DNA of 53,176 bases. Origin: a virus. Its lineage: Duplodnaviria; Heunggongvirae; Uroviricota; Caudoviricetes. The translations under genes and the position numbers were made by a program. Below are positions 9,746 to 53,176 of the stretch, piece after piece. The DNA lies in IMG/VR virus record IMGVR_UViG_2737471835_000006; one strand, 5' to 3'. Under the pieces are notes generated by a model, which did not search any database, was not told the DNA's origin, and saw only the letters and a program-made list of their open reading frames with translations. Numbering within the stretch: the first letter of the stretch is position 1; each line of letters begins with the position of its first letter.

Positions 9746-10131
9746 AATATCAGCTCCATATTATTAAACTCTAATCGCTGTTGTGTTTCGATATCTGTTG
9801 CGATAATTAATATTGTTATTTTCCCGATATCCACTGCTAACACATTTATTCTGTCAATTCTGACGCGTGGTTCCCAGCGTGCTATTGCGCCAGCACTTTC
9901 CATGATTATCCGTATAGCCAGTGATGGATCTGTGGGATTATCAACGAGGTCAAATAATTTGCTCCCATATTCCGGCAGCATTACACGGGTTCCCAGCGGG
10001 GTCGTTAAAATATCAACGATAGACTGACAAATGTGGTCAACCCCGGATAAAGGTTTACCAGTGTTACGGTCCATTCCAAGCATATTTACGCCATTGGTTG
10101 GTTCGGTTGTTGTGTTTCCCCGTCCGGGCAT
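9742..10131 (-). CDS. Baseplate wedge protein, P2 gpW / gp25-like
   Basis: Region MLGMDRNTGKPLSGVDHICQSIVDILTTPLGTRVMLPEYGSKL matches the gpW/gp25 signature; true start may be the internal Met at about 10083, just after the gpV stop. Confidence 0.7.
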   Translation of the reverse strand: MPGRGNTTTEPTNGVNMLGMDRNTGKPLSGVDHICQSIVDILTTPLGTRVMLPEYGSKLFDLVDNPTDPSLAIRIIMESAGAIARWEPRVRIDRINVLAVDIGKITILIIATDIETQQRLEFNNMELIF

Positions 10132-11003: not shown

Positions 11004-11505
11004 GTTCTGCGCCGATATCTGGCGCTATTCCGACATATAAATTTTTCAGGGTTCCCTGTGATGGGTAATCGAAAATATCGGGACCAACGCCGACAACCTG
11101 CGTGAACGACACGCACTGAACTGAATGCGAACCGACTGACTGCCCGTTTTTAATCCAGTCACACGGTTCCGCGTCGCTGAATTTTGCCGGTTTAGTTCCG
11201 GGACCGAACATTCGCCCATCAATCCAGCTCGTCATATAGAGCGCTGCATTCTGCGATTTCAGTCCGTACCGATCCGCAGCAAACTCACGCAGCAAATACA
11301 AATTACACGACAGCTCGACTGACTGAATTGAGCCTGGAACCGATTCGTCACTCTGTGACCAGTTGCTGATTTCCAGGAACAGAGCTGGCGTTTCAAATCC
11401 TGCCGGAATTTCTGGATAAATTCCGAATGTTTTGATGAACGGTATTTGTAAAACCGCGCCTTTAACGCGATCAAGATATTCGTCAAATGCATCCAGTCCG
11501 CTCAT
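10969..11505 (-). CDS. Hypothetical virion protein (tail completion position)
   Basis: 178 aa between head-completion genes and baseplate genes; no motif recognised. Confidence 0.4.
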   Translation of the reverse strand: MSGLDAFDEYLDRVKGAVLQIPFIKTFGIYPEIPAGFETPALFLEISNWSQSDESVPGSIQSVELSCNLYLLREFAADRYGLKSQNAALYMTSWIDGRMFGPGTKPAKFSDAEPCDWIKNGQSVGSHSVQCVSFTQVVGVGPDIFDYPSQGTLKNLYVGIAPDIGAEHEGDYYGPIGR

Positions 11506-12182
11506 AATCGTTTACCTGTTTTAGGGTCTACGTGAACGCGTCCTTTCACTCGACCGCGCAAATCTTTCTCAAAAAAGCCCATGAAAACAGGGCCAATGTT
11601 TTCAAAAATATAATCATCGATAGCATCCTCAAGCGCGTCGTGCACAGGTACGCGAGCCTCTTCGATTCCTCCGCGAGCCAGTCGAATCCAGACGCTTTTC
11701 GCACCGTAGCGTTTCGCTACGAATGAATCTGGCCAACTAATCATCGCCAGCCCTGCACTTTTGGGCGTAAAAGTTGCCCCTCGAGCGCCTTTTTTTGTTT
11801 TCAAAAATTGACCGGTCTCTGGATTGCGAGGCTGCTTCTGCTTCCTGGGATTTTGTAATTGCCCCTTTAGCTCAGATACACGGAAATCGTTCAGGCCGTA
11901 CCAGAGTTTTACGCTACTCAGATCTCCTGCCCCTTCTTTTGTAAAATTGCGGCGCTTAATGAACGGTTTGATTCGTTTATTTACGGCCTTATGATTTTTA
12001 GCTGCCAGTGCAGTCAAAATCATTCCTGCTGAAATTCGGTGCATATGCTTTGCAGTTCGGTTCAGCGCTCTGTTGTATGCCATCAGCATCTGATGTTGCG
12101 TCGCGCTGATTTCGACTCTGAGCTGCTCCAGCGCCGAAACATCGATATCGAACATCTGCGCGTTACTACGTAAATCGGCCAC
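11502..12182 (-). CDS. Putative virion morphogenesis / tail completion protein
   Basis: 226 aa basic protein; position equivalent to P2 R/S. Confidence 0.4.
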   Translation of the reverse strand: MADLRSNAQMFDIDVSALEQLRVEISATQHQMLMAYNRALNRTAKHMHRISAGMILTALAAKNHKAVNKRIKPFIKRRNFTKEGAGDLSSVKLWYGLNDFRVSELKGQLQNPRKQKQPRNPETGQFLKTKKGARGATFTPKSAGLAMISWPDSFVAKRYGAKSVWIRLARGGIEEARVPVHDALEDAIDDYIFENIGPVFMGFFEKDLRGRVKGRVHVDPKTGKRL

Positions 12183-12213
12183 GGTTCCCCCTTAAGTGGG
12201 ACCGCGGTCCCAC

Positions 12214-12594
12214 TTAGTATTTTGAATACTCGCTGTTTTCGCTGGACGTGTGAGGCTCTAAAAAAATATTCGTGAGACCGATGCCATCCGGTTGAGGCTC
12301 TTTAACCACGTAATCGGTCCAGTCAGACCAGGTAACAGAGCCGTCAGCAGCGATACTGCGCTGCTTTGGGACCTGGACAACGTCACGCGCAACAACGCCA
12401 GCGACGTCGTCTGAAAGCGCTGTCAGGCTCGTTACTGTACCGGTAATAAAACCAGCGTGAGGAACGTCAACGCGCGCGTAAGGCTCGTTGAAAATAGCGA
12501 TAATAGGGTCGGTTTTACCGCGTAATTTAACGGGCCATCCCCACTCACGGATCATCTCCTCGTCGCCAGCCCGGAGGTCATCGTAGTAGCTCAT
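12214..12594 (-). CDS. Head-tail connector protein (lambda FII position)
   Basis: 126 aa directly after the FI-like gene with 4-nt overlap. Confidence 0.5.
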   Translation of the reverse strand: MSYYDDLRAGDEEMIREWGWPVKLRGKTDPIIAIFNEPYARVDVPHAGFITGTVTSLTALSDDVAGVVARDVVQVPKQRSIAADGSVTWSDWTDYVVKEPQPDGIGLTNIFLEPHTSSENSEYSKY

Positions 12595-12998
12595 AGCGCG
12601 TAAACGTGATCAGCTGCGATGAGGTCTGCAACCTCCGGTGAATCAACAACAATTTCCCGGCCAGCAGCAACAATCTCGCGAACGCGACGCCCGTTCACGT
12701 AGTGATAAACGTCCAGCGTGTTACGCAGTCTGACGCGGCGCGTGGCGGGGGACAGTTCTGGTTGTGACGTCGTGCTCGCGATTGACGGTTGTTCGGCACC
12801 GTCACCATCATCTGATGCGCTTGCATTAGTGTCGGCATCACTCTCGTCGCCGGATTGCTCGTTCAGAATATCGAGCTCTGACTCAGCGCCGGCGACGATT
12901 GATTCCAGTTCCGCAATAGTCCCGCTACGCGGTAATTCGCGACCAAGCTGGGCGCTCAGATCATCGATGCGCGCCAGCAATTCTGTTTTTGTGCTCAT
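12591..12998 (-). CDS. DNA packaging protein, lambda FI-like
   Basis: 135 aa; N-terminal MSTKTELLARIDDLSAQLGREL parallels lambda FI; acidic middle region. Confidence 0.55.
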   Translation of the reverse strand: MSTKTELLARIDDLSAQLGRELPRSGTIAELESIVAGAESELDILNEQSGDESDADTNASASDDGDGAEQPSIASTTSQPELSPATRRVRLRNTLDVYHYVNGRRVREIVAAGREIVVDSPEVADLIAADHVYAL

Positions 12999-13028
12999 GT
13001 TGATTCCTTAAAAAGAGCCTTTCGGCTC

Positions 13029-14063
13029 TTACGCGATTTTTACGACGACGAATGCATCAGCGTCCGTGAGCACCATTGCTGGCGCGGATTGAGTCATTGT
13101 CTGCGTCACTGCCGGATCACCGGTCGTCGTCCAGACTTTTGGATAGCGCGTGGCCTCGCAGATCCCCTCTTTCAGCGCGTCTTCGTCCTGAATCGCGCCA
13201 TACGTGCGGAGTCCGCGATTTTTTGTGTTGCCCAGGATCATCGTGTTATCCGGCATATAACGCGTTTCAATGCCTGTTACAGGGTCAATATATTGCCCCT
13301 TGTAAACGAACAGCGCCGTGTCGCCGTAATAGCCCTTAAAGCTAACGACATCGCCCAGGTTTTTCAGCGCGACTTCGAGCTGGCTGTTTGAGCCACGGCG
13401 CGTATCCAGTGCCGTCCAGAATTTTTTAAAGCGCTTCAACTGCTTCCAGGCTTTACCGTCCATGATGATCACGTTAACAGCACCGGAGGCGAGGTCTGCA
13501 TAGGATTCGATATCGTCGCTCGGGTCATACGTTTCCGCGTCCTGAGTAGACCAGGCTGTCGAACCGGACTGAGTGACGTTATTCGTCGCGCTGCGGCTCA
13601 TATCGATCTCATAGGTCTCGATATTGCTGCCGGAGACTGTGTATTTACCGTACAGAACCGCCTGCACTGCCTGGAACTCTTCGAGCTGACTGATGCTGAG
13701 TTCCTCGTCGAGCAGGTTCTGCATGATGATTTTTGCACGACGTTCGACCGGCGTTTCCGGCTGACCAATTTGCTCACCGGCGGCGCGCTTAATGCTCATA
13801 TTCGGATTGATCGTGTGTTTCGGCTTCGTGTAACCCGGTTTGAAATAGTTCGTTGAATAGCCGCGAGTGCGGTCAACTTTGCCGGTGATCATCGGCGCGC
13901 AATATACCGCCATATTGACTTTGCCCGGGATTTTATCCAGAAAAACCTCTTCGCTCGTAAACGTGTAGGTCTCACGGAAAAACAATCTTAAAAACAACGG
14001 ATTGAACTTAAATACCTGCTGCGTTGCGGTAATCAGTTCTGACGTAGTAAACGAATCGCTCAT
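13029..14063 (-). CDS. Major capsid protein, lambda gpE family
   Basis: 344 aa; FKFNPLFLRLFFRETYTF, GNTKNRGLRTYGAIQD and TTGDPA blocks match lambda gpE closely. Confidence 0.9.
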   Translation of the reverse strand: MSDSFTTSELITATQQVFKFNPLFLRLFFRETYTFTSEEVFLDKIPGKVNMAVYCAPMITGKVDRTRGYSTNYFKPGYTKPKHTINPNMSIKRAAGEQIGQPETPVERRAKIIMQNLLDEELSISQLEEFQAVQAVLYGKYTVSGSNIETYEIDMSRSATNNVTQSGSTAWSTQDAETYDPSDDIESYADLASGAVNVIIMDGKAWKQLKRFKKFWTALDTRRGSNSQLEVALKNLGDVVSFKGYYGDTALFVYKGQYIDPVTGIETRYMPDNTMILGNTKNRGLRTYGAIQDEDALKEGICEATRYPKVWTTTGDPAVTQTMTQSAPAMVLTDADAFVVVKIA

Positions 14064-14454: not shown

Positions 14455-15764
14455 TATTCATCCCCTAAAATTGAACGCCCTGCCGCGACCAGCATCGAGA
14501 CGTTTGCGGTTGTTCCTGTTGCCGTGGTGCTGCCGGCATCCTGAATAGTTTCCGGTGATTCAGTGCTCATGAGTGTATCGAGCGCCGTTTCTGTCCGCGC
14601 CTGCGCTGTTTGCGGTGCTGCCGCGAGGACAGCCTGCGCCTGCCCGACCGTCATCCCGGGGACGGCAGCGAGCGCTTTTGCCTGCGCCTCGCGCCCAACA
14701 GCTTCGGGACAGTTGATGATGGCCATCACGCGTGCCAGTTCGCTCGATGCGGCGTCCGCGCGAATCTGCTCCGCGTTGGACTCAACCGGCGCGACCGTAG
14801 TCGTAGCCGCGGTTTGTTCTGTGGTCGTGGTCTCCGCCGTGGTTTCTGTTGTACCTGGCATAAATCGCTCCGTTTTTGGTTTCAGTGCGTCGGCCATCAC
14901 TGCGATAGCGTCCGCGTAATTAACGAGTTGATCAGCGAGACCAGATTTAATCGCGTCCGCGCCGATAAATACTGCGGCCTCTGTGGCCAGCACCCTGGAT
15001 TTTTTCAGCCCGGTATAATCCGAGACTTTTTGCGCGAACTGCTCGCGTGTGCTGTTAATACTCAGCTGGAATTCGTCGCGAACGTCGTCGGGCAGCTGGG
15101 AATACGGGTTCCCGTCGACTTTGTGCGCGCCGGCGTAAATCAGCGTCACGTCAACGCCGGCAATCTCCAGCGCCTTTTCGACGCAGCGGTGAGCCATCAG
15201 GACACCGATTGAACCAACCGTGCCGGTCTGCGTTATCAGCCGGCGCGAACACGCTGACGCCAGCAAATATGCGGCGCTGCAGGCCGTATCGCTGGCCAGC
15301 GCCCACACCGGTTTTTGCTCTCGCGCCCGGGCGATTAAATCAGCGGTATCAAACGCGCCGGCGACCTCACCGCCAGGGGAATCAATATCCAGCAGGATCC
15401 CCTTAACATCGGGATCAGAAATCGCCTGCTGCAGGCGTTTTGCGATTCCGTCGTAACCACTCATCCCGCTGACCGGATTGATATAACCCAATTTATGAAC
15501 CAGCGTCCCGGTAACCGGCAGAACGGCTATACCACGCTCCACGCGATACGATTTCTGGCGTGTTCGCTCGCTGCTGTCCCACCCCATCGCGAGCGCGTTC
15601 ATTTCGTCGCTGTTCATTACCTCTCCTGACGCTGTATCAATCAGTCGCCCGGTACCGAACCGGTCGCTCAGCGCAGAAAAAAATACCCGCGCGTAGGCGG
15701 GCTCCAGCAAAAGCGGTTGATTGAACGCCCTAGCGGCGAGGTGCGGAAAATTGTTCCACGGCAT
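14454..15764 (-). CDS. Head maturation protease / scaffold, lambda gpC (S49 peptidase) family
   Basis: 436 aa; SppA-type peptidase core with Ala/Thr-rich C-terminal scaffold-like region; directly after portal. Confidence 0.85.
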   Translation of the reverse strand: MPWNNFPHLAARAFNQPLLLEPAYARVFFSALSDRFGTGRLIDTASGEVMNSDEMNALAMGWDSSERTRQKSYRVERGIAVLPVTGTLVHKLGYINPVSGMSGYDGIAKRLQQAISDPDVKGILLDIDSPGGEVAGAFDTADLIARAREQKPVWALASDTACSAAYLLASACSRRLITQTGTVGSIGVLMAHRCVEKALEIAGVDVTLIYAGAHKVDGNPYSQLPDDVRDEFQLSINSTREQFAQKVSDYTGLKKSRVLATEAAVFIGADAIKSGLADQLVNYADAIAVMADALKPKTERFMPGTTETTAETTTTEQTAATTTVAPVESNAEQIRADAASSELARVMAIINCPEAVGREAQAKALAAVPGMTVGQAQAVLAAAPQTAQARTETALDTLMSTESPETIQDAGSTTATGTTANVSMLVAAGRSILGDE

Positions 15765-32169: not shown

Positions 32170-32441
32170 AGCGATTTCCTTTTAGTCGGATAATCACCCC
32201 CCTCAGGTGCAAATCTTTGGGTGGTGAGACATGCAGGGTTTGCACTACCGGCTAAAAGGACCCGGCGAGCCTTTCGACTCCCCTACACGCCCCACCATAA
32301 ATCGCGGATGTGGCTGTGCGCACGACAATAAAAAAGACGCTGGCGCGTCGTTGTCGCCTTTTAGATATCCGGGGTGCAAATCCCGGCAACCGATTTTGCG
32401 GCTGCGCGGAAACTATAGCCCCGGGCTTTTTCTAAGTCAAT

Positions 32442-39464: not shown

Positions 39465-41681
39465 ATGACCATTTTTAACGGCTTGTTAGAAGCGAAAAAA
39501 GGTGCGCTCAAAAACGGCGCGATCCCGGCGCTGGCCATCGCCATCGACGCCCCTAACAAAAAAGTTGCCGAGAACATCATCATCGGCAAATTGTGGGAAG
39601 CCTACCCTGACCACGGCGACAACTATTTCAAACCTAAAATCTGGGAAGATGCCCCGGGCCAACCGCGCCCAGGCGTCGGTGAGTTTGATGAGACGTTTGC
39701 CACAGAACACAGTTTTGATGGCGAGAGATGGGTAGTTAACACTCCTGTTGATTCAGGTTGCAGTTCAGCAGATATCTCACAGGTTAGCGACCTGATGAAA
39801 CTGCCTGCTCGTGAACGCTTCGCCGCCGTCCTGCTGTTCAGCCACGATGCCAACGAAGTCGACAGTGAATTGCTTGCGCAGACGCGTGAATACCTGGAGA
39901 TGCTCGACAACAGTGATACTGACAGTGAGGATGAGGTTGACGCGTTTAACCGCATCGTTCTTGATGCCATGGTGGCGTGTAAGCCCATCGAGTACATGCA
40001 TATTGCTGGATTGAATAATCTGGTACATGCAATTTTGGCAAGTTGCGATACCCAGGAACAAAACCCGACCAGTTGGACTATCTCCAAATTTATAAAAAAA
40101 TGGGTAGAGAATCCCGGTAAACGCGATGAAATGCTGCCGGAGGTAAAACCAGAAACAGCATCCGCACGTCCTTACCAACAGACTCACGCCACACTGGATC
40201 GTGAAATTGCCTGCGCCCTGTTACCCGTTGGCCCGGAAAAAATCACCCCCAGCATCCTGAAAGCGGCAGACGAAATAATCAGTCAGGACAGGGAAGATTT
40301 TAAACGCTGGTCAATGGCCTTGCGCACAACGGATCAGATCCTTGCCTATGACCGTGCATCAGTATTCGGTGTTATTCAGAGCGCCCCCGCAAAAGACACG
40401 TACCACTTCCCACAATCCCTGCGCAGTCACATCGACAACTGGCTGCAAGCTAACGGGCAGCGTGATGCAAATGCTGTTGAAGAGAAGCCAAAGGAAGCAG
40501 CACCAAAGGATGATGTAAAAGTCACCAACCACGGCGGCGGACGATTCTCAATTGATGGGATGATGTCAGAAACACCCTCAAATCAGGGCGAAAAAAGCGA
40601 AGCTGCAAATGCTGGAGAACGTAGTTTGCAGCAGTTGCGTGAGCAGTTTGTCACGCCTCGCCATGTGTATGACGTACCTGAAAATAACGCCGTATCACAG
40701 AGGGAACCTGCAGCAATTACCCTGGCAGAAGAGACTCCTCCACAAGAAAAACTTAGCGAGCAGGTAAAGGATCTGGTGCAGAACGTTGACGCGCTGGTTG
40801 AGCGGGTCCATACCGAAGAGCACAAGCGGCAGAATGCAATCTCAGCTATCGAAACGGAGTTAAAGGACTCCGACGACACAGATAACCTGGCATTGTGGAA
40901 GAACGTATTCAAAACCGATGAGCGCTTCACCAGTGCTTTCTCTCAGAACGGCGGCGGCACATCCATCAACGGCACTTATATAGCGATGAAAGCGACTCGC
41001 GAATTTGGGCCGTTTGGTATTGGCTGGGGTGTAGAGGTGGTGGAAGAGCGTTTTGATAAAGGCGCACCGATAGTTCGCAAAAAACAGGTTGGTGAAAAAA
41101 TAGAATGGGATCTGATTCAAGACGGTGTTGGCGGGTACCTATGTGAAATGCACCACACCATGAAAGTTAGAGTCTGGTACATATTGAATGGAGTGCGCGG
41201 TGAGTCCGAGGCTTACGGATGCACACCTTATATCTACGACACTAAATACGGACCAACAAGCGACGGCGAAGCGCCGAAGAAATCCTGGACGGATGCTGTT
41301 AAGAAAGCGCTATCCCCTCTCGGATTCAGCGCCGATATTTTCATGGGCCTGTACGACAATCCGGAATACCGCCAGAGGAATAAAGCTGAGTTTGATATCA
41401 AGAATGCCAGCGAAAATGCGGAAGATGCTACCCGTCTGCGTAAGGAACTGGATGAGAAGCTTATCAACGTTGCCAATACGCTGGCCGCCGCGGTAACCGC
41501 CAACGAAGTAAACAAGGTATTTGGCCTCATCGCCCGCGAAGTGGATGTACACAGGAAAGCAGCGGAAGCCAAAGGCGATAAAGAATATTCATCGTATCTG
41601 GGATCACGTCTGCGCCGTATCAGCGACATCAAAACCGAACGCCTCGCCGCTCTCGCCGCCGCACAGGAGCAAACAGCATGA
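39465..41681 (+). CDS. Large early-left protein with C-terminal Rad52/Sak-like single-strand annealing domain
   Basis: 738 aa; C-terminal REFGPFGIGWGVEV ... EAYGCTPYIYD ... KKSWTDAVKKALSPLGFSADIF resembles Rad52-family SSAP motifs; acidic N-terminal half of unknown function. Confidence 0.45.
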   Translation: MTIFNGLLEAKKGALKNGAIPALAIAIDAPNKKVAENIIIGKLWEAYPDHGDNYFKPKIWEDAPGQPRPGVGEFDETFATEHSFDGERWVVNTPVDSGCSSADISQVSDLMKLPARERFAAVLLFSHDANEVDSELLAQTREYLEMLDNSDTDSEDEVDAFNRIVLDAMVACKPIEYMHIAGLNNLVHAILASCDTQEQNPTSWTISKFIKKWVENPGKRDEMLPEVKPETASARPYQQTHATLDREIACALLPVGPEKITPSILKAADEIISQDREDFKRWSMALRTTDQILAYDRASVFGVIQSAPAKDTYHFPQSLRSHIDNWLQANGQRDANAVEEKPKEAAPKDDVKVTNHGGGRFSIDGMMSETPSNQGEKSEAANAGERSLQQLREQFVTPRHVYDVPENNAVSQREPAAITLAEETPPQEKLSEQVKDLVQNVDALVERVHTEEHKRQNAISAIETELKDSDDTDNLALWKNVFKTDERFTSAFSQNGGGTSINGTYIAMKATREFGPFGIGWGVEVVEERFDKGAPIVRKKQVGEKIEWDLIQDGVGGYLCEMHHTMKVRVWYILNGVRGESEAYGCTPYIYDTKYGPTSDGEAPKKSWTDAVKKALSPLGFSADIFMGLYDNPEYRQRNKAEFDIKNASENAEDATRLRKELDEKLINVANTLAAAVTANEVNKVFGLIAREVDVHRKAAEAKGDKEYSSYLGSRLRRISDIKTERLAALAAAQEQTA

Positions 41682-42247
41682 GCACCGCTATCGCTATTGC
41701 AAAAGAATACGCCAGCCTGATTGACCTGCTGGAAACCTCCGACGAACTGACGCCAGAGATGATCGCCGACACACTTGAAGGTATGGAAGGAGAACTGGGA
41801 GACAAACTGGACGCCATGATGGTCATCTGCCGCAATTTACAGGGCAATGCCAGTACCTGCGCTGAAGAAATGTCTCGCCTGGCTACCCGTAAGACGTCCT
41901 TTGAAGGCAAGGAAAAAGCAATTCGGAAGCATATGCTCGCCTGCCAGCAAGCTGCTGGCCTGGATAAACTAAAAACCGCAAAAAACACATTTACTGATGC
42001 ACAGGGGGCTATCCGGGTAATTATCGATAGCAAAGATAAGATCCCGGATGAGTATGAAGGCGTGTCACTTGTTGATGTAGAAACGGTTATTACACCAAAC
42101 AAGCGAGCCATTAAAGAAGTGATTGAATCTGCGGAGGCGGTTGCCGCCGAAATACTGGCGCGTGGAGAAACACCACCAGCCGAGTTATTAAACCCGGTAC
42201 CAGGCGCACATCTGGAACGCGGCGAACGTTCGCTGAGGGTACGCTAA
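41678..42247 (+). CDS. Hypothetical protein coupled to the recombination protein
   Basis: 189 aa; ATGA overlap with the upstream gene; helical, acidic. Confidence 0.4.
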   Translation: MSTAIAIAKEYASLIDLLETSDELTPEMIADTLEGMEGELGDKLDAMMVICRNLQGNASTCAEEMSRLATRKTSFEGKEKAIRKHMLACQQAAGLDKLKTAKNTFTDAQGAIRVIIDSKDKIPDEYEGVSLVDVETVITPNKRAIKEVIESAEAVAAEILARGETPPAELLNPVPGAHLERGERSLRVR

Positions 42248-42429
42248 TGCTTAAACTCACATTAAAGCGTGGTGACGCGGTTCACCTGGTACTTGCCGAT
42301 GGTACCAATGGCATTATTGAAGCACGGAGTCGCTGCGAACTTGGGCTACACCTGCCAGAAAACATTAAGGTCACGCGGGAGAAATCGGCATTCCCCCCAC
42401 CAGAACTGATTACGCCTAATCAGAAATAA
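42247..42429 (+). CDS. Small beta-rich protein with CsrA-like sequence pattern
   Basis: 60 aa; TAATG overlap with the upstream gene; MLKLTLKRGD ... LGLHLPENIKVTREK loosely parallels CsrA. Confidence 0.3.
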   Translation: MLKLTLKRGDAVHLVLADGTNGIIEARSRCELGLHLPENIKVTREKSAFPPPELITPNQK

Positions 42430-42478
42430 AAACTCACCATCGCTAGCATTGCGATTCACCAGTAACAGGAGGATCACA

Positions 42479-42673
42479 ATGCTGCGATGGCAACCGGGAG
42501 CAACTCTGCTCTCCGCATTTGATATCAAAATTGGCCGACTGTCGGCCAGCGTCAGGAAACAGGCCTTGACCGAGTCTGATATTGCCCGTGCCTGCCATGT
42601 GGCAGATGACGCAATAAGCTACATAATGAGGAAAGACCATGAACGATCTGTTAAACGACGAGGAACTGGTTGA
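42479..42673 (+). CDS. Hypothetical small protein
   Basis: 64 aa from the Met preceded by SD AGGAGG (7-nt spacer); the six-frame ORF starts 30 nt upstream. Confidence 0.35.
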   Translation: MLRWQPGATLLSAFDIKIGRLSASVRKQALTESDIARACHVADDAISYIMRKDHERSVKRRGTG

Positions 42674-42854
42674 ACTGACCGGCTACCAGTTCCCGTCAAA
42701 ACAATGCGGCGCCCTGACCCGTGCCGGGATCTCTTATGTAAAACGCCGCGATGGGCGACCTCGCGTCACATGGACGCATGTAAACGCTGCGCTGTCCGGA
42801 GCAAGGTCCGTGCAGATTGCCGAAGAAGAACAACCAAATTTTGATGCAATCTGA
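42639..42854 (+). CDS. Putative excisionase / recombination directionality factor
   Basis: 71 aa immediately upstream of the integrase with overlapping stop/start. Confidence 0.4.
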   Translation: MNDLLNDEELVELTGYQFPSKQCGALTRAGISYVKRRDGRPRVTWTHVNAALSGARSVQIAEEEQPNFDAI

Positions 42855-43882
42855 TGAGCAGAACACGAAAAAGCGCGGAAGATAATAAGCTGCCACCCCG
42901 CGTTTATAAAAACAAATACAGCTATTATTTCAAACCAACGCCCCGAGAGTGTATTACGCTGGGTAAAATTAATGATCTGTCAATTGCTCAGGTATGGGTG
43001 AAATACGAAGAGATCCTGAATGATGCTATTGATGTCATGACGTTCAGTAAACTCTGGAACAAATTTCTCAACAGCACCTACTATCTGGAACTCGGTCAGC
43101 GTACACAAAAGGATTATCTGCAGCACCAGAAGAAATTACTCGCCGCGTTCGGGAAAATGAAAGCCGACAACATAAAACCTGCTCACGTGCGGCTGTATAT
43201 GGACAAGCGGGGGCTGAAAAGCAAAACACAGGCGAACCATGAAAAAGCCAGTATGTCGCGAGTATTCCGCTGGGGATACGAACGCGGATACGTAAAAGGG
43301 AATCCATGCCAGGGCGTCAGTAAATTTTCCCTCAAGCCCCGCGACTACTATTTCACGGACGAGGAATATATCGCAATTTATCAGGAGGCATCTCCCGTTT
43401 TACAGTGCGCGATGGAGATCGCCTATCTGTGCGCCACGCGGATCGGCGATATACGAAAGCTGACGTGGGATCAGGTTATGAGTAAGGGTTTGTTTATCCA
43501 ACAGGGTAAGACTGGCAAAAAGCAGATCAAACAGTATTCAGAGCGACTGACGTTCGCACTTGAGCAGGCGAAATCGTTGGGAGGACAACATTTCGTGGTC
43601 TGTAACAAATATGGCGGGCAATACAGTTATACCGGATTTAACGATATCTGGCGTAAAGCCAGGGCGGCGGCAAGTGAAAAGCTGGGCTACCCGATTACGG
43701 GAACGTTTCACGATTTAAAAGCGAAGGGGATCTCAGACTACGACGGAAGCAGTAAAGAAAAGCAGTTGTTCTCTGGTCACAAAACTGAGGCGCAGGTGCT
43801 GACGTATGATCGCAAACCTGCAGTTTCTCCGACTCTGGATATTCCGGTGCTGGATGTCACAGTTCTGAGCAGAAACCCGTGA
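42854..43882 (+). CDS. Tyrosine site-specific integrase
   Basis: 342 aa; phage-integrase architecture with C-terminal catalytic region (HDLKAKGISDY ... LFSGHK ... LTYDRK); adjacent to a tRNA-derived att core. Confidence 0.8.
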   Translation: MSRTRKSAEDNKLPPRVYKNKYSYYFKPTPRECITLGKINDLSIAQVWVKYEEILNDAIDVMTFSKLWNKFLNSTYYLELGQRTQKDYLQHQKKLLAAFGKMKADNIKPAHVRLYMDKRGLKSKTQANHEKASMSRVFRWGYERGYVKGNPCQGVSKFSLKPRDYYFTDEEYIAIYQEASPVLQCAMEIAYLCATRIGDIRKLTWDQVMSKGLFIQQGKTGKKQIKQYSERLTFALEQAKSLGGQHFVVCNKYGGQYSYTGFNDIWRKARAAASEKLGYPITGTFHDLKAKGISDYDGSSKEKQLFSGHKTEAQVLTYDRKPAVSPTLDIPVLDVTVLSRNP

Positions 43883-43967
43883 CGGTCTAATTCTAAGTGA
43901 ATATTCTAAGTCCGTTCTAACAGGGGGATCGACGGTGAAAAGTGAGTGACGTAAGTCATTGATAAAG

Positions 43968-44037
43968 TGGCGGAGAGAGGGGGATTTGAACCCCCGGTAG
44001 AGTTGCCCCTACTCCGGTTTTCGAGACCGGCCCGTTC
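43968..44037 (-). tRNA. tRNA-Ser (anticodon CGA) 3' fragment; att core copy, not a complete gene
   Basis: Minus strand reads anticodon arm CCGGT-CTCGAAA-ACCGG, long variable arm, T-arm GGGGG-TTCAAAT-CCCCC, acceptor 3' strand TCTCTCC and CCA; no complementary 5' acceptor strand exists upstream. Confidence 0.6.
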
Positions 44038-44163
44038 ATCAAACAAAACAGCAACTTAGCTCACATTATGAGGAAAAGTATCTTTTTTGTACTATGTAAA
44101 TTCAAAGGGTTAGCCTCATTTCCCAGATGGTTTTCTCAACACTATTAGTTGTGAGCCCTTGCA

Positions 44164-45266
44164 ATGTTCATTAATATACACCACACAAATAATTCACAGA
44201 TATTGCAAAATGCTCAGGTCAAAAATAAAATAAAACGTGTTGATCGTCTGCTCGGTAATGAATCTCTTCATCACGACATCCCCCTGATTTTCATAAACAT
44301 TATTTCCATGCTGACGAGCAAGCTGTCACTGTGTGTCATCGCCGTTGACTGGAGTGGATACCCCTCTCAGGAGTATCACGTACTCCGCGCCAGCCTGATT
44401 TGCGATGGACGTTCGATTCCATTGCTGAGTTGGATAGTTCCTTCGGAAAAACAGCAAAATGCTAAGATACAGCAAGCCTTTCTTAATACTCTTTCCGAAG
44501 CGGTAAACCCAAAAGCAAGGGTAATCATCGTCGCGGATGCAGGGTTTCAGAATGCCTGGTTTCGGCACGTAAAATCACTCGGCTCGGATTTTATTGGCCG
44601 GATACGAGGCAATAAACAACTACATCTGGCAAGAAAAGGGGAATGCTGGTTCAGGCGTCAGGAATTACAGGCCAGTAACAAACCTGAATATCTGGGGCCG
44701 GGGACGCTTTCCCGGGCGGAATACGCCCGTTGCGATGGTCATTTTTATTTGCACAAAAAAGAGCCGAAAGGCCGGAGAAATAAACGTTCGCGTTGTGGTA
44801 TAGCCAGACCATCACAGATAAAAGATGCCAGGTCGGCGGCAAAAGAACCATGGTTAATATTCAGCAGCACAGATGACTTTAAACCGCGAGAAATCATGAA
44901 GTTATACAGCCACCGAATGCAGATTGAGCAAAACTTCAGGGATGAAAAAAGTGAGCGTTTTGGGTTCGGTCTGCGAGCCAGTTGCAGCTGTTCGGCAGGA
45001 AGAATGCTGGTACTGAGCCTGCTGGCAACACTGAGCACAATAGTGCTGTGGCTTATTGGCTATCACGCTGAAAATCAAGGAGATATCAGGCCAACAGCAT
45101 TAAAACGCAGCGGGTAATCTCGCATCTGACGTTAGCGGAGAATGTCTTACGACACTCCCCGCTAATTTTAAAACGAACGGTGCTAAGCACCATTCTTAAT
45201 CACCTCGCCAGAACCTACCAGAATATGGTGTTGGTTTATTAGCGCTGATTTATGGGGATCCCTCAG
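44164..45266 (+). mobile_element. IS4-family (IS10-like) insertion sequence remnant with disrupted transposase
   Basis: 317-aa ORF 44164-45117 collinear with the IS10 transposase core (KRVDRLLGN, VIIVADAGF, SAAKEPWL, YSHRMQIEQNFRDEKS) but short at both ends; terminal repeat CTGAGGGATCCCCATAAAT (reverse strand) at 45248-45266; no left end found. Confidence 0.6.
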
Positions 45267-45407
45267 CGCTTATGCGGGCTTTTTCATCTACTTAAATTAC
45301 GGTGTTTAATACATCCCCCTCAACGGGTATCATTCTTTTCTTTCATCGATCCAAACTTTCCACCATAAAAATGAATCCCCATATGATCTAGAAGCGAATA
45401 TCGATTA

Positions 45408-47111
45408 CTATGTGGGGTCGACCAACCAACCTTCAATATAATGGAAAGGAACTGGGTATCGGTAACAGCGACACGCTGTAAGAACTAATGGTGCATACCC
45501 TTTAATCACGGCTGACATTCTCTTAAACGAATCTGCATTATTACACTCTTGTGCAATGTGTTTTATTGCTAATTCGCCATTCATCGGGAAATCTGTTGAC
45601 GCTGAGCCATGTGTATCTGAGTTCGAGTACATATATTGTTCACTGTATTGATTTGGATACCAATACTGTAGCGTGCTATGTGCCAGTTTTTCAGTAGCAA
45701 ACTCTTCCAAATCTTTGCTTAAAGAGTCTAATTTATACAGAGAGCAAAAGACTGTTAACAGAGGATATAAAATACTAGCCTCAGTAACCTTATTCTTATA
45801 AATCTTGTCAGTTTTATCTTTATTCCTATGTTCAATCAGTTTTTCGTAAGTTTCATATATAATTGGATACATTCCATTGATCTCAAAAGAGAATATACAT
45901 CTATTAACCATTTCCGATAGCCAACTTTTCACAAACTCATCGAGCTCTGAATTATTTGAGAGTAACATTAGAGCTAACCCAATATCTATCGCCTGAGAAT
46001 CTTTTTGCGGTGAGAGCAGAACCGGATTGTTGATAACTAATAGACGAATTGACTTTGTTATTTTCCTGAGATGTATACATAACCTTTCTTGTTCTTTGCT
46101 CTCTCCATCAATTGGTGGGTTCTCTGCATAATTCTTAGACAACAAATCTAAAATCCAGTGTCCCTTGACGGATAAACGACCTAGCACATCAAAAAGCTTA
46201 AAGTTTATATCAATAGAGCACGGGGAGCGAACAGCATGAGATAAAGCATATTTAAATTCAACATACGGAATTAAACAACGTTCAATATAGCAATCAGTAA
46301 TTTGCTGGTAGGTATCTAAAATGCTATCAAATGACTTTGAAGGCCTATTCTTTCCGGTATAGTGTTCTTTTACTTTATCCCAAGCTAACAGCAATGCTCG
46401 TTCTGATGAAAGATATGCTGATTCTAAATTCCCGCCATCACGACACCAAGCAAATAAAACCCATAGACAAACATTTATCCGTGTTATCGATGAGGCAACA
46501 GAATCTGAATCTGTAGCGTTTTTCAGAACATCATTAATCAATAGAAAGAAGTAATTGCTAGAAGTCTCTGGTTCTTCAAGTAAAGCCAAAGATTTTCTTA
46601 ATAAGGTCTGGCTGGAACTAGGTAGTAATTCTTCTTTCAACAAATGCTGCTGGATAAGCTCAGATATTTTATCACCATTCCACTCTTCAAAAGAAATATT
46701 ACCTTGAGTATTTCGTGTTTCATACCCAGACACCTCTTGCCTGATCCCTGAGCTAACATCTCCACCAAAGCATAAGCAAATAACTATTTTTTTATCTCTA
46801 TGTTCGGGCGGTAAACGACTTGGTATAAATGAATCTTGAATCTCATCTAACGAAGGTCTAAGAGCCTGATCTGCGTTTCCATTCCATGTCTCACGAGTAA
46901 GGTTTCCAGATTTAACAGAAAATAAATAGACTTTTGTCTCTTCACCATTTATTTGGCCTACAGCCGCTATATCTACTCCATACTCTTTCACTCCACGGGT
47001 TGGCGAAATAAACACATTCATCCCCATACTGCTCAACAAATCTGGCAGTATAGCATCTAACTCTGCTCGTTCTTTTAATGAAGCCAAGTATTGCTTAAGA
47101 ATTAATTTCAT
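45408..47111 (-). CDS. Uncharacterised large protein with Mrr-type restriction-endonuclease-like N-terminal domain
   Basis: ATG start at 47111 lies 1 nt after the upstream gene's stop (the track's 47126 start is a GTG). N-terminal SPTRGVKEYGVDIAAV ... KVYLFSVKSG resembles the Mrr catalytic-domain pattern; rest helical; AT-rich. Confidence 0.5.
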   Translation of the reverse strand: MKLILKQYLASLKERAELDAILPDLLSSMGMNVFISPTRGVKEYGVDIAAVGQINGEETKVYLFSVKSGNLTRETWNGNADQALRPSLDEIQDSFIPSRLPPEHRDKKIVICLCFGGDVSSGIRQEVSGYETRNTQGNISFEEWNGDKISELIQQHLLKEELLPSSSQTLLRKSLALLEEPETSSNYFFLLINDVLKNATDSDSVASSITRINVCLWVLFAWCRDGGNLESAYLSSERALLLAWDKVKEHYTGKNRPSKSFDSILDTYQQITDCYIERCLIPYVEFKYALSHAVRSPCSIDINFKLFDVLGRLSVKGHWILDLLSKNYAENPPIDGESKEQERLCIHLRKITKSIRLLVINNPVLLSPQKDSQAIDIGLALMLLSNNSELDEFVKSWLSEMVNRCIFSFEINGMYPIIYETYEKLIEHRNKDKTDKIYKNKVTEASILYPLLTVFCSLYKLDSLSKDLEEFATEKLAHSTLQYWYPNQYSEQYMYSNSDTHGSASTDFPMNGELAIKHIAQECNNADSFKRMSAVIKGYAPLVLTACRCYRYPVPFHYIEGWLVDPT

Positions 47112-47112
47112 T

Positions 47113-48837
47113 TTACATTCTCTCACTACGACATGTTATCAAAAAATAATCTAGTAACACGGGATCTAAAGCATCCAACCTTGGCATTTCAGTAGAGTGA
47201 GAAAAAGTCTGCATTTGCATTTCCTGTCGTATGGATTCCCCATCACCTTGATGTATATAATAAATAGAACTGTTCCCGTATAATAAAATTTTAGGTTTCG
47301 AGAACATTCTAAATAAAGAAAATTCCGATGCTTCTTCGATAGCTTTTTGCATACTTCTGTCAACATTTTTCCAATAAATGCTTAAATTTTCGCTGGGTGC
47401 TTTTAGTTCATTAAGTTCAGATACTTTTTCAATACCAGTCTGATGGAGTTTATACTTTGCAAGCAATCGCTCACATAGATGTTCCTGGATGCCGCTATCA
47501 ATGCATGATTGAAAGAAGCGTTTAAGTTCTCCAGGGTAACTTAAAAGCAAAGGGAAGTACAAAATACCCTCAAGCTTTTCAATTGTGTTTTCCGAAGCCA
47601 CATCTGCAATAGAAAGAATAAATTTTGCAGTTTCAACTGGCCGTGTAAATAACCATCCTATAGCCTTACGACTAATAAAAACTTGCTTTATATCATTATC
47701 CAATAAATCCAATTCCGCCTTTAGTTCAATTTCCTCACCCGTAGCATCATGAAGTAAATCTAAAATACCATGACAAAATTGTTTTTCTCCACCCAGAAGC
47801 CATTTTGTAATGATGTGATTAAGTAGTTCTTGATGCTTACTTATTAATTCATTAGAAAAATAGTCCAGCGATTTAAATGTAACACCTGCTATTAAAGTTG
47901 ACTCCAATAATTCCACAGCAAGCGAGTACTTACTTTTCTCAGCTAACATGACCAATATATAATCAATATTACCTATAATACCTTTATGATCACAGGACAC
48001 ATTAGTTAATTTCTTAAGCATGATATACAGAATACTATCTGGAAGAATCTCCGATTGAAATGCAACAATACTTGAAATTATCTGAAGAACCTCTGTAGAT
48101 TCTCTCTTAACAAAAGCAATTAAAAACTCTTCTATTTGCGGCCAGTAAGATGGAAACCTTTTCCCAAATTGGAGTGCAGACATCAATATCGACGCACAAC
48201 AATCATTATCACTCTCGCTAACACCATTGTTTCTAATTTGCTCCCAAATTAAGTTAGCCTTTGTCTCATCAATATCTAACTGTCCCAAAGTAAAATAGCC
48301 TTGATTTCTGATCATTGCATTTCTATTAGAAATGAGTCTTTCTGTCATCTGGATAGCTGTTATGACACTATCTGCGTCGTAAGCAAGGAGCGAGCTTGAA
48401 AGAAAAGGGGCATATGCATTCAAATCACTTTGTGCAAGGATAAACTCAACACTATCTCTAGAGCGAGATGCTTTCACACTACAGTAACGCTCATAGGCTT
48501 TATAGATTGTACCAATAGTTGCCCCTCTCCCGACCTGTTGCACCAATTGAACCAGACAATGTAGAACATCCTCAATTCTTGCATCTATCAAAGGTAGCGC
48601 TTCTTCAAACGTTTGTAGAATAGTAAAAAAATTACTACCGTAGGATTTTTTATCAATACCTTTTACCATTTTGAGGATATCAATCACACCAGTGTTGTGG
48701 AGTTCAGCTAGCGCTAATGCTAAACTTCTTTCTTCGGTATGTAATTCTTGAGCATATAAATCACAAACTAGAGCAAGCAGATCTTCTGCCGTTTCACTTG
48801 CATTCAGCAACTGGCCTCTTGTTTCTTCTAACGACAT
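47113..48837 (-). CDS. Uncharacterised large alpha-helical protein, first gene of a two-gene operon
   Basis: Start placed at ATG 48837 (MSLEETRGQ) with GAGG about 9 nt upstream; the track's 48852 start is a GTG. No P-loop or other catalytic motif seen; AT-rich. Confidence 0.5.
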   Translation of the reverse strand: MSLEETRGQLLNASETAEDLLALVCDLYAQELHTEERSLALALAELHNTGVIDILKMVKGIDKKSYGSNFFTILQTFEEALPLIDARIEDVLHCLVQLVQQVGRGATIGTIYKAYERYCSVKASRSRDSVEFILAQSDLNAYAPFLSSSLLAYDADSVITAIQMTERLISNRNAMIRNQGYFTLGQLDIDETKANLIWEQIRNNGVSESDNDCCASILMSALQFGKRFPSYWPQIEEFLIAFVKRESTEVLQIISSIVAFQSEILPDSILYIMLKKLTNVSCDHKGIIGNIDYILVMLAEKSKYSLAVELLESTLIAGVTFKSLDYFSNELISKHQELLNHIITKWLLGGEKQFCHGILDLLHDATGEEIELKAELDLLDNDIKQVFISRKAIGWLFTRPVETAKFILSIADVASENTIEKLEGILYFPLLLSYPGELKRFFQSCIDSGIQEHLCERLLAKYKLHQTGIEKVSELNELKAPSENLSIYWKNVDRSMQKAIEEASEFSLFRMFSKPKILLYGNSSIYYIHQGDGESIRQEMQMQTFSHSTEMPRLDALDPVLLDYFLITCRSERM

Positions 48838-49135: not shown

Positions 49136-49720
49136 TTACATTGTGTCTGGTTCTTCCGGCCACTCAATATCAGGTGCAGTTGTTGTATTAACACGGTTCA
49201 GCAACACCCGATACTTCTTCCAGGCTTCCAGCAACGAGGTTTCTTCCTCCGTTGCAATTTCCAGATCTGCAGCATCCTGAAGCGGCGCAATATGCTCACT
49301 GGCTACCTGCATCAGGCTGTTTTTTGTTTCTTCCGCCTCCCGGATCCGGAACAGTTTTTCTGCTTCTGCATCTTTCACCCAGGCTGTGCCGTTCCACTTC
49401 TGATATTCCCCTCCCGGCGACAACCAGGTAACATTTTCCGGTAACGGACCGAGTTCAGAAATAAATAACGCGTCGCCGGAAGCCACGTCATAAACCGTTT
49501 TACCCCGATGGTCTTCAACGAGATGCCACGATGCCTCATCACTGTTGAAAACAGCCACAAAGCCAGCAGGAATATCTGGTGGTGCAATATCGGTACTGTT
49601 TGCTGGCAGACCTGTATGAGGCGGAATATATGCGTCACCTTCACCAATAAATTCATTAGTCCCGACCAGCAGATTATAAATTTTTATGGTCCGTGGTTGT
49701 TCACTCATTCTGAATGCCAT
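49136..49720 (-). CDS. tfa: Tail fiber assembly protein, lambda Tfa
   Basis: 194 aa, near-identical over its length to lambda Tfa as recalled ([18 protein letters not shown] ... [51 protein letters not shown]). Confidence 0.85.
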
Positions 49721-52700
49721 TATGCAAGCCTCACAATATAGTTAAATGCGATGTTTTTGACGGTGTTTTCCGCATTACCAGCAGCGTTAACGGTGATGGT
49801 GTGTCCATGTGAACCAATCGCAACGGAGTGCGTATGAGCACCAATACCGACAGTATGCGCGTGTGCACCTGCAGATGCTGCTGTGCCGGACAGTGAGTGG
49901 CTATGATTACCATCTGTACTGGTATTAGCTAACCACCCCGTAGACATACCTACTGAGCCTTGTACACCCCAGGTATTTTGACCTGAGCTTGTATAACCAT
50001 ATTGATAAGTATCTTTAAAAACACTGGGGTTAAATCGACGGCCATCTCTATGGCTGTGATTACCAGCTGCATTCGTGCTGCCACTTAAACTATGAGTATG
50101 CGCACCAGTGTTATTCGTGGATTTAGTGCCGTAATCAAACGATGATGTGGTTTTCGTACCCAAATCCGTACTGGATACGCTGGCGCTGTGGGTGTGCGAT
50201 TTAATGCCGTCCTGTTCCTGAGACAATACGGCACGACCACTGGCGGGCTTGCCCTTAATCGTCCAGCCACGCATATCAGGGATCACGCCTGACGGATAAG
50301 CGGCTGCAAGTTTCGGGTAAGCAGATTTGTCAAAAGTCTGCCCCTGCATCAGGGCATAACCAGACGGAACGGTATCTGATGGCCACGGGATTGGTGCGCC
50401 GACTGGGTAGCTTTCTGGTGGAAGATTTTTCGAGGTATAAACTTCTGCCCAGTCTTCCTCAAAACCATAACCGTCTCTTGAAGAACGGTAGAACAGACCA
50501 CCATTTCTGTAATGCGCCTTCATCTGCAGGGTCCGGCAACTTCCGACTCCGGTATAGAAGTTAACCAGAATATAGCTGTCGCCAGAGCGGGTGACATTGT
50601 AAGCGCCTGATTCGGCATTCCATGGAACGCCCCCATCCGCATCGGCATATGTATCCGTTGCCCTTCTGGCAAAAGCAGCCACATGCGCGGCGGTTAAAGT
50701 GATATCAGTAGAACCATCAAATGGAACACCGGATATTTTTCTTGCAGTCTGAAGTTTTGTAGCAGTTGCAGCATTACCAGTGGTGTTCTGATTACCCGTA
50801 GTGTTTACACCTGGAAGGTTAATATTTGCAGAACCGTCGAAAACAACTCCACCGATAGATCTTGCCGTCTGCAATTTCGTGGCTGTACTTGCATTACCAT
50901 TCAATGAACCAGTTAATCCACCTGTAACAGACAACGGACCTGAAACTGTTCCTCCGGTTGTTGGCAGTGCTCCAATATCTGATGGTGTAGGTTTCTGATG
51001 TGAGCTATACATCGTATAAACAACACCATAGGTAACGCTGGAAGGCTTACTCACTGAATATGTTGGCGAGGTATAAACAGAAACTGACGCATTTGCAGTA
51101 CAATCCCAATGGATATTTACACTCGTCGCATAATTGCCAATCTCAACGTAAATATCATATGTATCGCCGGATGTGTTGATCCAGGCGAAATTCGTTAATC
51201 CGACGGCTGTACGCTTCCACAAAGCCCCGGTAATTCCTTTGGGGTTTCCATTGCCTGCTCGTAGAACCAGTTCTGAAATGCCTGCCTGATGTGGGGAGCC
51301 GACGTTGTAACCAGCGCCACCAATCAATGCGATGTAAACGATGGAACTCGCTTGTGGCATGGTAACCGTAGCCAGTTTGAACCACCCAGCCCCGCCAGAG
51401 AAAGACATCGTTACTGAATTTAAAGTACCAATATCTTTCGGCGTTAATGTTATATCCGCAGTCAGTGCTTTTCCGTTAACTTTTCGGTTAGATGGCACCC
51501 TGCTATTCGCATTGTCATTGGCTGCTTTAACTGCTTTTGGCGTTGCGGCCAGCGATTCACTGGTGCTATCAACAGCACTGCTAAGTTTCACAACACCTTT
51601 AGTTGTAAGGCTTGCGTCTTCCATCGCAACTGCACCGGCAATCTCTTCAGCACGATCAGCAGCAGTTTCCGCACGGGTCGCAGCGGATTCAGCAGCAGTT
51701 TTGCTCTGAGATGCTGCCGTCGCACTGCCTGCCGCCTCTGTTGCTTTCGTGGATGCCGTCGCGGCGCTGCCCTTCGCTGCTGACGCCTGTCTGGTCGCCT
51801 CATCTTTTGAAGCAGACGCAGATGATGCCGATGACGCCGCCGAACTGGCGGACGATGCGGCAGCCGTTTTTGAGGATTCTGCGCTGGTTTCCGACGCTTT
51901 CGCGTTCGTCTCGGATGTCTTCGCTGCGGAAGCAGACCTCGCTGCTGCGCTGGCCTGTACAGCGGCTTCGCCAGCCTTCGTTGTGGCTGTTGAAGCGGAC
52001 GATGCAGCACTTTCTGCCGATTTTCCGGCGGCGGTGGCACTGGCTGAGGCCTGCCCGGCACTTGTTGACGCGGCACTGGCAGACGACGCAGCCGCTGTTT
52101 TTGAGCCTGCCGCAGCTGAGGCACTCTGTCCCGCTGCCGTTTCAGAAGCCTTGGCGTTCGTCTCGGACGTTTTTGCCGCCTTCGCAGAATTTGCTGTCGC
52201 CGTTGCCGAGGAAGCTGCGCTGCTGGCGCTCGAGGCTGCGCTCGTTTCTGATGATTTTGCCGCCTCTTTTGAAGCCGACGCATCCCGGGCTGAGGTGGCA
52301 GCTTCTGACGCTTTCGTGGTCGCGGTGGATGCTGAAGTGGCTGCTGATTGTTGTGACGCTGCCGCATTCGTTTCTGACGTTTTTGCCGCAGCGGCACTGG
52401 TGGCCGCCGCGCTTTTTGAGGACTCTGCAGCGGCAGCACTTTTTGATGCTTCAGTGGCCTTTGCTGATGCCGTTCCTGCGCTGGAAGACGCTGACTGAGC
52501 CGACGAAGCGGCCTGTCCGGCTGACGTGCTGGCTGCGCGTGCTGAGCCTGCAGCATCAGTCGCATGGGTTGCCGCCTCACGGGCTGATGTGCTGGCATCG
52601 CCGGCTGACTTCTTCGCGGCTGCCGTGTTCTGTGCCACCGCGGACGCGTTACGCGCCACCTCTTCCACCATCAGTTCAAAACGGCGCAGTGCCTCAGGAC

Positions 52701-52995
52701 GGGCATCATCCTCCGTCATGGCACCGAGAAAATCATTCAGCGTACCGGGTCGGGAATCTTCATACACGGTGATGGTCCCGGCATGTGACGGCGGGAATCC
52801 TTCCACCAACAGAATAACGCTGTACTGACCGTACTCAACGTCCATGCTGTAACGCCCGGCTTCATCCGGATTTTCTGAGGCCAGCGTGTTCACCACCACC
52901 GTGGTGCTGTTACGTTTTGCTTTCAGCTGGATTGTGCAGTTCTGTACCGGTTTTCCTGTGCCGTCTTTCAGTACACCTGAAATCTTTACTGCCAT
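49720..52995 (-). CDS. stf: Side tail fiber protein, lambda Stf family (long form)
   Basis: [27 protein letters not shown]-terminus, Ala/Ser-rich repeats, and His/Gly-rich C-terminal region ending [11 protein letters not shown] as in lambda Stf; ATG start placed 6 nt inside the track ORF (first codon there is GTG). Confidence 0.9.
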
Positions 52996-53003
52996 ATTCA
53001 CCC

Positions 53004-53033
53004 CACAAAAAAGCCCGCCTGAACCGGCGGGCT
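53004..53033 (-). terminator. Rho-independent terminator between lom and stf
   Basis: Stem AGCCCGCC/GGCGGGCT with 6-nt loop; on the minus strand it is followed by UUUUUUG. Confidence 0.5.
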
Positions 53034-53059
53034 GTCATAACACTGTGTTACCTGGCTAA

Positions 53060-53176
53060 TCAGAACTTATAACCGACACCCACGATGAAACCGTCAGTGC
53101 GCCAGTCGCCACTGCCGGAGCCTTCATAAGCAATATCAATGGCCACGGATTCGGTCGGGTTAAACTGCACGCCAGC
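53060..53176 (-). CDS. lom: Lom/Ail/PagC-family outer membrane protein, C-terminal fragment (continues beyond window)
   Basis: Minus-strand translation ends ...AGVQFNPTESVAIDIAYEGSGSGDWRTDGFIVGVGYKF-stop, matching the lambda Lom C-terminus; lies upstream of stf as in lambda. Confidence 0.7.
   Translation of the reverse strand, partial: AGVQFNPTESVAIDIAYEGSGSGDWRTDGFIVGVGYKF

Follow-up and report, generated by a model that had tools for sequence, protein, structure and literature searches.

The 281-bp region between an integrase gene and an IS remnant, in the 53,176-nt stretch of DNA analysed here (the window), is very probably the internal hybrid att site of two prophages arrayed in tandem at serU, the E. 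coli gene for tRNA-Ser(CGA). It lies between the stop of an ORF of 342 aa (42854–43882, +) and the ATG of the ORF at 44164, and it holds a displaced 3' part of serU flanked by the integrase-side arm of one prophage (A) and the distal arm of another (B). A tandem-prophage junction had been proposed for this place in a first-pass annotation, and the comparisons described below support that reading: each half of the junction is exactly the att site of a single lysogen. Both prophages are likely to use the same tRNA site, serU; the locus is not certain because the same fragment-bearing module is also found at thrW prophages. The features of the window are listed here from left to right.

1–42638: body of prophage A, with P2-like contractile tail, lambda-like head, lysis genes, Q, replication, cro/cI region and early genes (from the match to E. 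coli E62 and annotation)
42639–42854, + strand: DUF4224 gene, putative excisionase or directionality factor of A (Pfam PF13986, E 1.5e-16)
42854–43882, + strand: int_A, a serU-specific tyrosine integrase of 342 aa (Pfam Phage_integrase, Phage_int_M and SAM_3)
43883–43951, no strand: integrase-proximal att arm of A (P'-type), 69 bp, the same as the arm beside intact serU in E62
43952–43967, no strand: 16-bp spacer TAAGTCATTGATAAAG, directly 3' of the tRNA (from the alignments)
43968–44038, − strand: displaced 3' fragment of serU, nt 20–90, 71 nt (from the serU alignment; no tRNA by ARAGORN or Rfam)
44039–44208, no strand: distal att arm of B (P-type), about 170 bp of non-IS DNA (from identity to B ends in other genomes)
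44209–45282, + strand: IS4-family transposase remnant, frameshifted and incomplete, inside the end of B (from DNA homology to plasmid-borne IS4-family elements)
45408–48837, − strand: Olokun anti-phage defence operon, with oloB at 45408–47111 and oloA at 47113–48837 (PADLOC)
49136–53176, − strand: tail-end genes of B, with tfa at 49136–49720, stf at 49720–53001 and the last 38 codons of lom at 53060–53176 (Pfam Caudo_TAP, phage_tail_N and Collar)

The displaced serU fragment and the composition of the junction

To place the fragment on the tRNA gene, we aligned the window to the annotated serU of K-12 and E62. Positions 43968–44038 (− strand) correspond to nt 20–90 of the 90-nt tRNA, with 70 of the 71 bases matching: nt 28–90 are exact (63 nt, 43968–44030), the sole mismatch falls at nt 27 (A>G, window 44031), and nt 20–26 match again. 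The 5' 19 nt, comprising the 5' strand of the acceptor stem and most of the D arm, are missing, and unrelated sequence stands in their place. The anticodon CGA is at 44021–44023. The 63-mer occurs once in the window and in none of 100 shuffles. Over the whole 53-kb window ARAGORN reported 0 tRNAs and 0 tmRNAs, and Rfam at its gathering threshold found no tRNA in the window (its matches were IS009, isrK and C4 RNAs elsewhere); with a relaxed threshold, Rfam gave one sub-threshold partial match to the tRNA clan, at 43979–44049 (− strand). The alignment and both programs thus bear out the earlier claim that only the 3' part of a tRNA-Ser(CGA) is present, and re-analysis with ARAGORN and Rfam yielded no complete tRNA fold. 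The earlier coordinates, 43968–44037, were right to within 1 nt, as the fragment reaches 44038, and its description as running from the anticodon arm onward was accurate as far as it went, 8 further nt from the 3' side of the D arm being present as well. Its 3' end faces the integrase gene, as had been stated, with the CCA at 43968 directed toward the integrase stop codon at 43880–43882. Judged by its sequence, which matches only the 3' part of serU, the fragment is the att scar of a tRNA-integrating element and not a gene.

The composition of the junction becomes apparent when five sites are compared:

K-12 attB: host spacer, 16 bp, intact serU
E62, left: host spacer, 16 bp, nt 30–90, distal arm of A
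E62, right: integrase arm of A, 16 bp, intact serU
E-ge-1 and GPEC657, left: host spacer, 16 bp, nt 20–90 (G27), distal arm of B
Window: integrase arm of A, 16 bp, nt 20–90 (G27), distal arm of B

The window junction is the integrase-side site of A fused, base for base, to the distal site of B via a common core. The core together with the sequence to its left is exactly what E62, S42 and D217-5 have as the att site of A next to its integrase, where the tRNA is intact and followed by mtfA, while the core together with its right flank recurs exactly in E-ge-1, F3 and GPEC657 as the far-end att site of B. The single copy of the serU core in the window is that of B. Its boundary and its nt-27 mismatch are the same in GPEC657 and E-ge-1, both of which have intact serU at the other end of B. 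The spacer TAAGTCATTGATAAAG is common to the host attB flank and the attP of A and is absent from the serU-proximal arm of B; the BLAST boundary of the B-only genomes falls at 43952. The block of identity between A and the host comprises the 16 bp of the spacer and 61 nt of the tRNA, 77 bp in all, and that of B comprises the tRNA part only (nt 20–90, with G at nt 27). Strand exchange must have fallen within 43968–44028 (nt 30–90, 61 nt), since this is the sole stretch common to attB and the attPs of both A and B.

The two prophages

Prophage A is a 44-kb element that takes up positions 1–43951, with its integrase gene at its end. Window 1–44038 aligns without gaps, over 44,038 bp, to a prophage in E. 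coli E62; there are 7 mismatches, of which one is the tRNA difference at nt 27. The order in E62 is yodB, host spacer, 16 bp plus serU nt 30–90, A through int_A, 16 bp, intact serU, mtfA, asnT; other E. coli with prophage A alone at serU show yodB, fragment, A, int, intact serU, mtfA. Window position 1 lies ~332 bp inside the distal end of A (it corresponds to position 15776 of locus L005, where the distal att site of A spans 15367–15443), which places A's own serU fragment, as judged from A lysogens, ~332–410 bp to the left of the window start. According to the annotation of E62, the early, Q, lysis, terminase and head genes of A are lambda-like and its contractile tail is P2-like. The term lambdoid therefore fits A only loosely: it suits the regulation and the head genes but not the tail. 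In the early region of A, a C4 antisense RNA and the Hfq-binding RNA isrK adjoin each other (32217–32405, − strand; Rfam, above gathering score).

In a contig look-up of the exact Int_A protein, intact serU and mtfA followed in 10 of the 10 contexts listed. Int_A and Int_B are 57% identical over their whole length, and the pairing of a DUF4224 gene with the integrase gene recurs in B. The DUF4224 gene is a putative xis, given its position and the "excisionase" annotation of its match in phage ZF40. At the H-x-x-R box of lambda-type integrases both proteins read HDLKAKG (residues ~285–292 of Int_A, window 43700–43760), that is, Lys replaces the second catalytic Arg in each; since both keep it, the substitution is probably a trait of their subfamily. 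The arm of A contains a 9-bp direct repeat, ATTCTAAGT, at 43890 and 43903, with a degenerate third copy, GTTCTAAC, at ~43914. By their likeness to lambda P'1–P'3, these repeats might be candidates for arm-type Int binding sites. A repeat search of the two arms of A found no 8-mer common to both. In B, TTTTCTCAA is present at 44131–44139 in the distal arm and again in the serU-proximal arm and is the only 9-mer that the two arms have in common, which hints that it may be a candidate arm-type site of B.

From 44039 onward the window holds the distal end of the lambdoid prophage B, consisting of att arm, IS4 remnant, Olokun, tfa, stf and lom. Rightward from 43952, its identity to complete E. coli genomes reaches 100% within the aligned stretch. 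In GPEC657, B is complete: a lambdoid prophage of 48 kb, bounded by the serU fragment and intact serU, in which lom is followed by J, tail, head, terminase, lysis, Q, cro/cI, DUF4224, int_B, three hypothetical genes, intact serU and mtfA. The B part of the window is collinear with it at 97.4–98.9% identity. The right-hand region is thus a second prophage, as had been supposed, and not host DNA; the lambda-type gene order is seen in GPEC657, and the window includes only the tfa, stf and lom end of it. A decayed B with the same two ends is found in E-ge-1. In the B-only genomes (E-ge-1, F3 and GPEC657) the host DNA to the left of the core is zinT, yodB and the yodB–serU spacer. GPEC657 itself lacks yodB (L003 7451–7674), positions 3027–4021 of the K-12 locus L004 being absent between zinT and the spacer downstream of serU.

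Among complete genomes, 10 have a distal B end that is 98.9–99.7% identical to window 43952–44300, the closest of them differing at a single base. The B arm is present in four GPEC genomes as well; their overall identity is 92.4% since the match extends into a diverged host integrase relic. The B arm of the window has a private SNP, A at 44045, where the aligned B-arm copies have G. The ORF at 44164–45117 has a Pfam DDE_Tnp_1 match and is annotated as a pseudogene in RefSeq. Truncation of the tRNA by this IS was considered and rejected, as the first position with IS homology is 44209, which leaves 170 bp between it and the fragment. The PADLOC models match both proteins along their full length, OloB over aa 1–562 of 567 (E 3e-207) and OloA over aa 9–573 of 574 (E 3e-110), and neither protein has a Pfam domain. 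What had been described as a two-gene operon is, by these matches, the Olokun defence system, carried by B as cargo behind its att arm. In the assembly collection, 1,279 blocks are indexed for this exact OloB protein. All right-hand genes had been said to read toward the tRNA fragment, which holds for OloB, OloA, tfa, stf and lom (all − strand) but not for the IS-remnant ORF (+ strand), which reads away from it. An IS009 RNA (49179–49377, − strand; Rfam, above gathering score) overlaps tfa.

The lom gene is cut by the window end, and its C-terminus is identical to that of GPEC657 Lom. While int_A is within the window, int_B is seen in other B-carrying genomes only, as the window ends at lom. 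By comparison with other genomes, intact serU, int_B and A's own fragment would lie beyond the window edges, intact serU some 40 kb past the right one. In GPEC657 (L006 8074–10325), the three hypothetical genes between int_B and intact serU encode proteins of 350, 143 and 265 aa. This is an unusual place for cargo, which here parts the integrase from its att arm. PADLOC found no match for these three genes, and in E-ge-1 the first of them is interrupted by IS1.

Other settings of the fragment-bearing module and alternative readings

A block made up of the serU 3' fragment and 278 bp of the K-12 yodB–serU spacer (96–97% identity) is also present at the distal end of thrW prophages (Ceylon31, L030 ~41200–43200; EDL933, L029 19739–20087; also L020, L022, L024 and L027). 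This copy adjoins an AraC-family gene and paoD and forms a second serU-type pseudo-attachment site ~1.7 Mb from serU; beyond the fragment lie the IS4 remnant and Olokun in Ceylon31 and a GIY-YIG gene in EDL933. Prophage A could have integrated, by way of its own integrase, at the pseudo-attB of a thrW prophage (~0.3 Mb) and not at the serU locus. In that case the array would run AraC, relic, core, A, int_A, core, module, prophage, thrW and would end without an intact serU. Such a pseudo-site holds the full 77-bp identity block that A needs. The order in Ceylon31 is proA, thrW, int through pinE, Olokun, IS4 remnant, serU fragment, relic, AraC, paoD; EDL933 has fragment and relic in the same thrW island; the 278-bp relic is a 96–97% copy of K-12 L004 positions 4191–4468; and locus L020 unites lom, stf and Olokun with the AraC context. 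However, of 8 distinct contexts recorded for the exact IS-remnant ORF, 7 show zinT/yodB, which marks the true serU locus, where every Int_A context seen also lies, and the whole B part with tfa, stf and lom is matched only in genomes that have it at serU (98% coverage, 98.7–98.8% identity). We consider integration at thrW unlikely.

The slot just inside the att arm of B (window 44039–45407) is a variable cargo position, occupied here by the IS4 remnant and Olokun. In other B-family prophages with different cargo the arm is ~86% conserved, and the same slot (EDL933, L029 20001–21031; PM4; STEC1575) holds a gene for a LEM-3-like GIY-YIG nuclease. The identical end made up of Olokun, IS4 remnant and serU fragment occurs with no fewer than three unrelated types of tail module: lambda-like stf/tfa accompanied by lom, a tail fibre of the S74-peptidase type, and a Mu/e14-like baseplate that comes with the Pin recombinase and invertible fibre genes (loci L018, L023, L024, L026 and L027 were compared with L021 and L025 and with L019 and L020). 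A third context is provided by two draft genomes (L018 and L023, ~9100–13700): after a fragment with only 92% identity (over 91 bp), yodB/zinT give way to umuD, umuC and genes for a cold-shock protein, a ymcF-like product and a porin. Because the distal module (serU fragment, arm, IS4 remnant and Olokun) joins at least three unrelated tail modules and occurs at both serU and thrW, it might be read as a resident, att-anchored cargo block beside which phage bodies are swapped, though we find this decidedly unlikely. If it were true, tandem arrays would be intermediates, and excision between non-cognate cores would swap the bodies and leave or move the defence cargo.

We also searched for the A–B junction elsewhere. 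It was found in 0 of 5,426 complete E. coli genomes and was absent from GTDB species representatives, JGI metagenome contigs and IMG/VR; look-ups of the exact Int_A, OloB and IS-remnant proteins led, among the contigs sampled, to single-lysogen contexts only, with no A–B junction. Four records that covered at least 80% of the junction proved to be B-only genomes, in which the host flank with its diverged integrase relic gives 92.4% identity. A 105-bp extra match in GPEC strains (43847–43951) was rejected as an int_A remnant left after deletion of A, as K-12 has the same ~75%-similar relic. In K-12 MG1655 this relic (L004 ~4340–4468, downstream of serU) resembles the last ~40 bp of int_A plus the att arm at ~75%. 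Since the K-12 yodB–serU spacer holds it, prophage-free E. coli carry an old scar of a serU-type integrase. The 79-bp core was found at 7,169 places in 5,422 complete E. coli genomes, with up to 4 per genome, so that extra core copies are common. GenBank phages yielded only distant relatives of the integrase and the serU phage SerU-LTIIb, and a search of IMG/VR for free attP forms turned up neither that of A nor that of B.

With each half present alone at ~100% identity in other genomes, and the join in no public genome or collection searched, the junction could in principle be an assembly chimera, in which reads from A and B lysogens in a mixed culture or metagenome were joined via the identical 79 bp (43952–44030). 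Against this, the join has the composition and the orientation, set by the tRNA, that site-specific recombination predicts; ordinary reads, and the k-mers with which assemblies usually finish, are longer than a 79-bp repeat; and the private SNP at 44045 argues that the B arm is not a mere copy of a known B lysogen. A chimera is thus very unlikely. Finally, the IS4-family remnant near the fragment could suggest that a non-specific event (IS4 insertion or deletion) cut serU beside one prophage and that the right-hand genes are a random remnant, which is barely credible given that the inner boundary at 44038 and the nt-27 mismatch are the same in all B-only genomes examined that keep intact serU, and that B is a complete prophage in GPEC657.

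Probable tandem integration at serU

The array at serU very probably arose as follows. The attP of each phage carries the 3' part of the tRNA, nt 30–90 plus 16 bp downstream in A and nt 20–90 with one mismatch in B, and the tyrosine integrase exchanges strands inside the common 61-nt block. Islander describes blocks that run from the 3' end through the anticodon stem as an "anticodon-centred" class (PMC4383910). From the extent of the block and by analogy with that class, to whose attPs the fragment length seen here (61–71 nt) conforms, the crossover is probably centred in or near the anticodon loop. Integration rebuilds the tRNA at the integrase end and leaves a displaced 3' fragment at the other, and a second phage can then use either copy of the core. 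In a B lysogen, A could have entered the displaced fragment; in an A lysogen, B could have entered the rebuilt serU. Each of these routes would lead to (yodB), fragment, A, int_A, [P' arm of A / core / P arm of B], B, int_B, intact serU, (mtfA). As the product is identical, the window fits either order of arrival equally. The fragment in the window would then be a recombination scar that is still usable as a substrate. Together with the outer sites, it would be expected to allow independent excision of the two prophages, since neither has lost an arm (69 bp on the side of A, ~170 bp of non-IS DNA on that of B).

In tandem polylysogens of lambda the internal junctions are attP-like (P'-core-P), and the prophages excise singly by Int/Xis between neighbouring sites. 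Those arrays consist of copies of one phage, whereas the core described here is flanked by arms of different phages, whose integrases are 57% identical. Tandem arrays of integrative elements that share a tRNA or tmRNA gene are known from the Islander database, in which tRNA integration yields a regenerated gene and a displaced fragment, each tandem member has its own integrase and fragment, and 125 tandems were counted among 3,919 islands (PMC4383910). In those arrays, as would be expected here, a regenerated tDNA stands at one end, there is one displaced 3' fragment per element, the fragments follow the orientation of the tDNA, and each element has its own tyrosine integrase near its tDNA-proximal end (PMC4383910). 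As Islander expects of a tandem, the internal junction consists of the integrase-proximal arm of A, the core and the distal arm of B; unlike in the Islander arrays, only this junction falls within the window, and it is other genomes that point to the intact tDNA, to one of the fragments and to one of the integrases. A close parallel is Sp10, which integrated in tandem with Rac in E. coli K-12 by using the Rac attR as attB (Asadulghani et al. 2009, PMC2669165). There too the incoming phage uses the core at the end of the resident, giving two prophages head to tail with a hybrid internal att; the Rac site, however, is not serU, and that lysogen was made experimentally.

As a target, serU is a recurrent, variable and often replaced site of prophages and islands in STEC O145:H28 (PMC7067040) and O121:H19 (PMC8767318). 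In O121:H19 lineage 3 a prophage and an integrative element are both at serU, and the same study found four sites with two prophages in tandem (PMC8767318). A phage, SerU-LTIIb (GenBank KU052038), is named for the gene. These elements have the same tRNA target as A and B, but the present pair, a contractile-tailed A and an Olokun-carrying lambdoid B, was joined in no genome searched.

Tandem arrays at tRNA genes are well documented, and the A–B junction is a further instance, a real product of ordinary site-specific integration that raises no new question. Its value for annotation is that the fragment marks the exact boundary between A and B: the "prophage region" of ~90 kb is to be split at 43952–44038, after which each element has its own integrase and cargo, that of B being the Olokun operon, and the fragment should be annotated neither as a tRNA gene nor as a pseudogene of unknown origin. 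The junction also adds an example of serU as a contested integration site in E. coli, and of displaced tRNA fragments that stay usable as secondary att sites.
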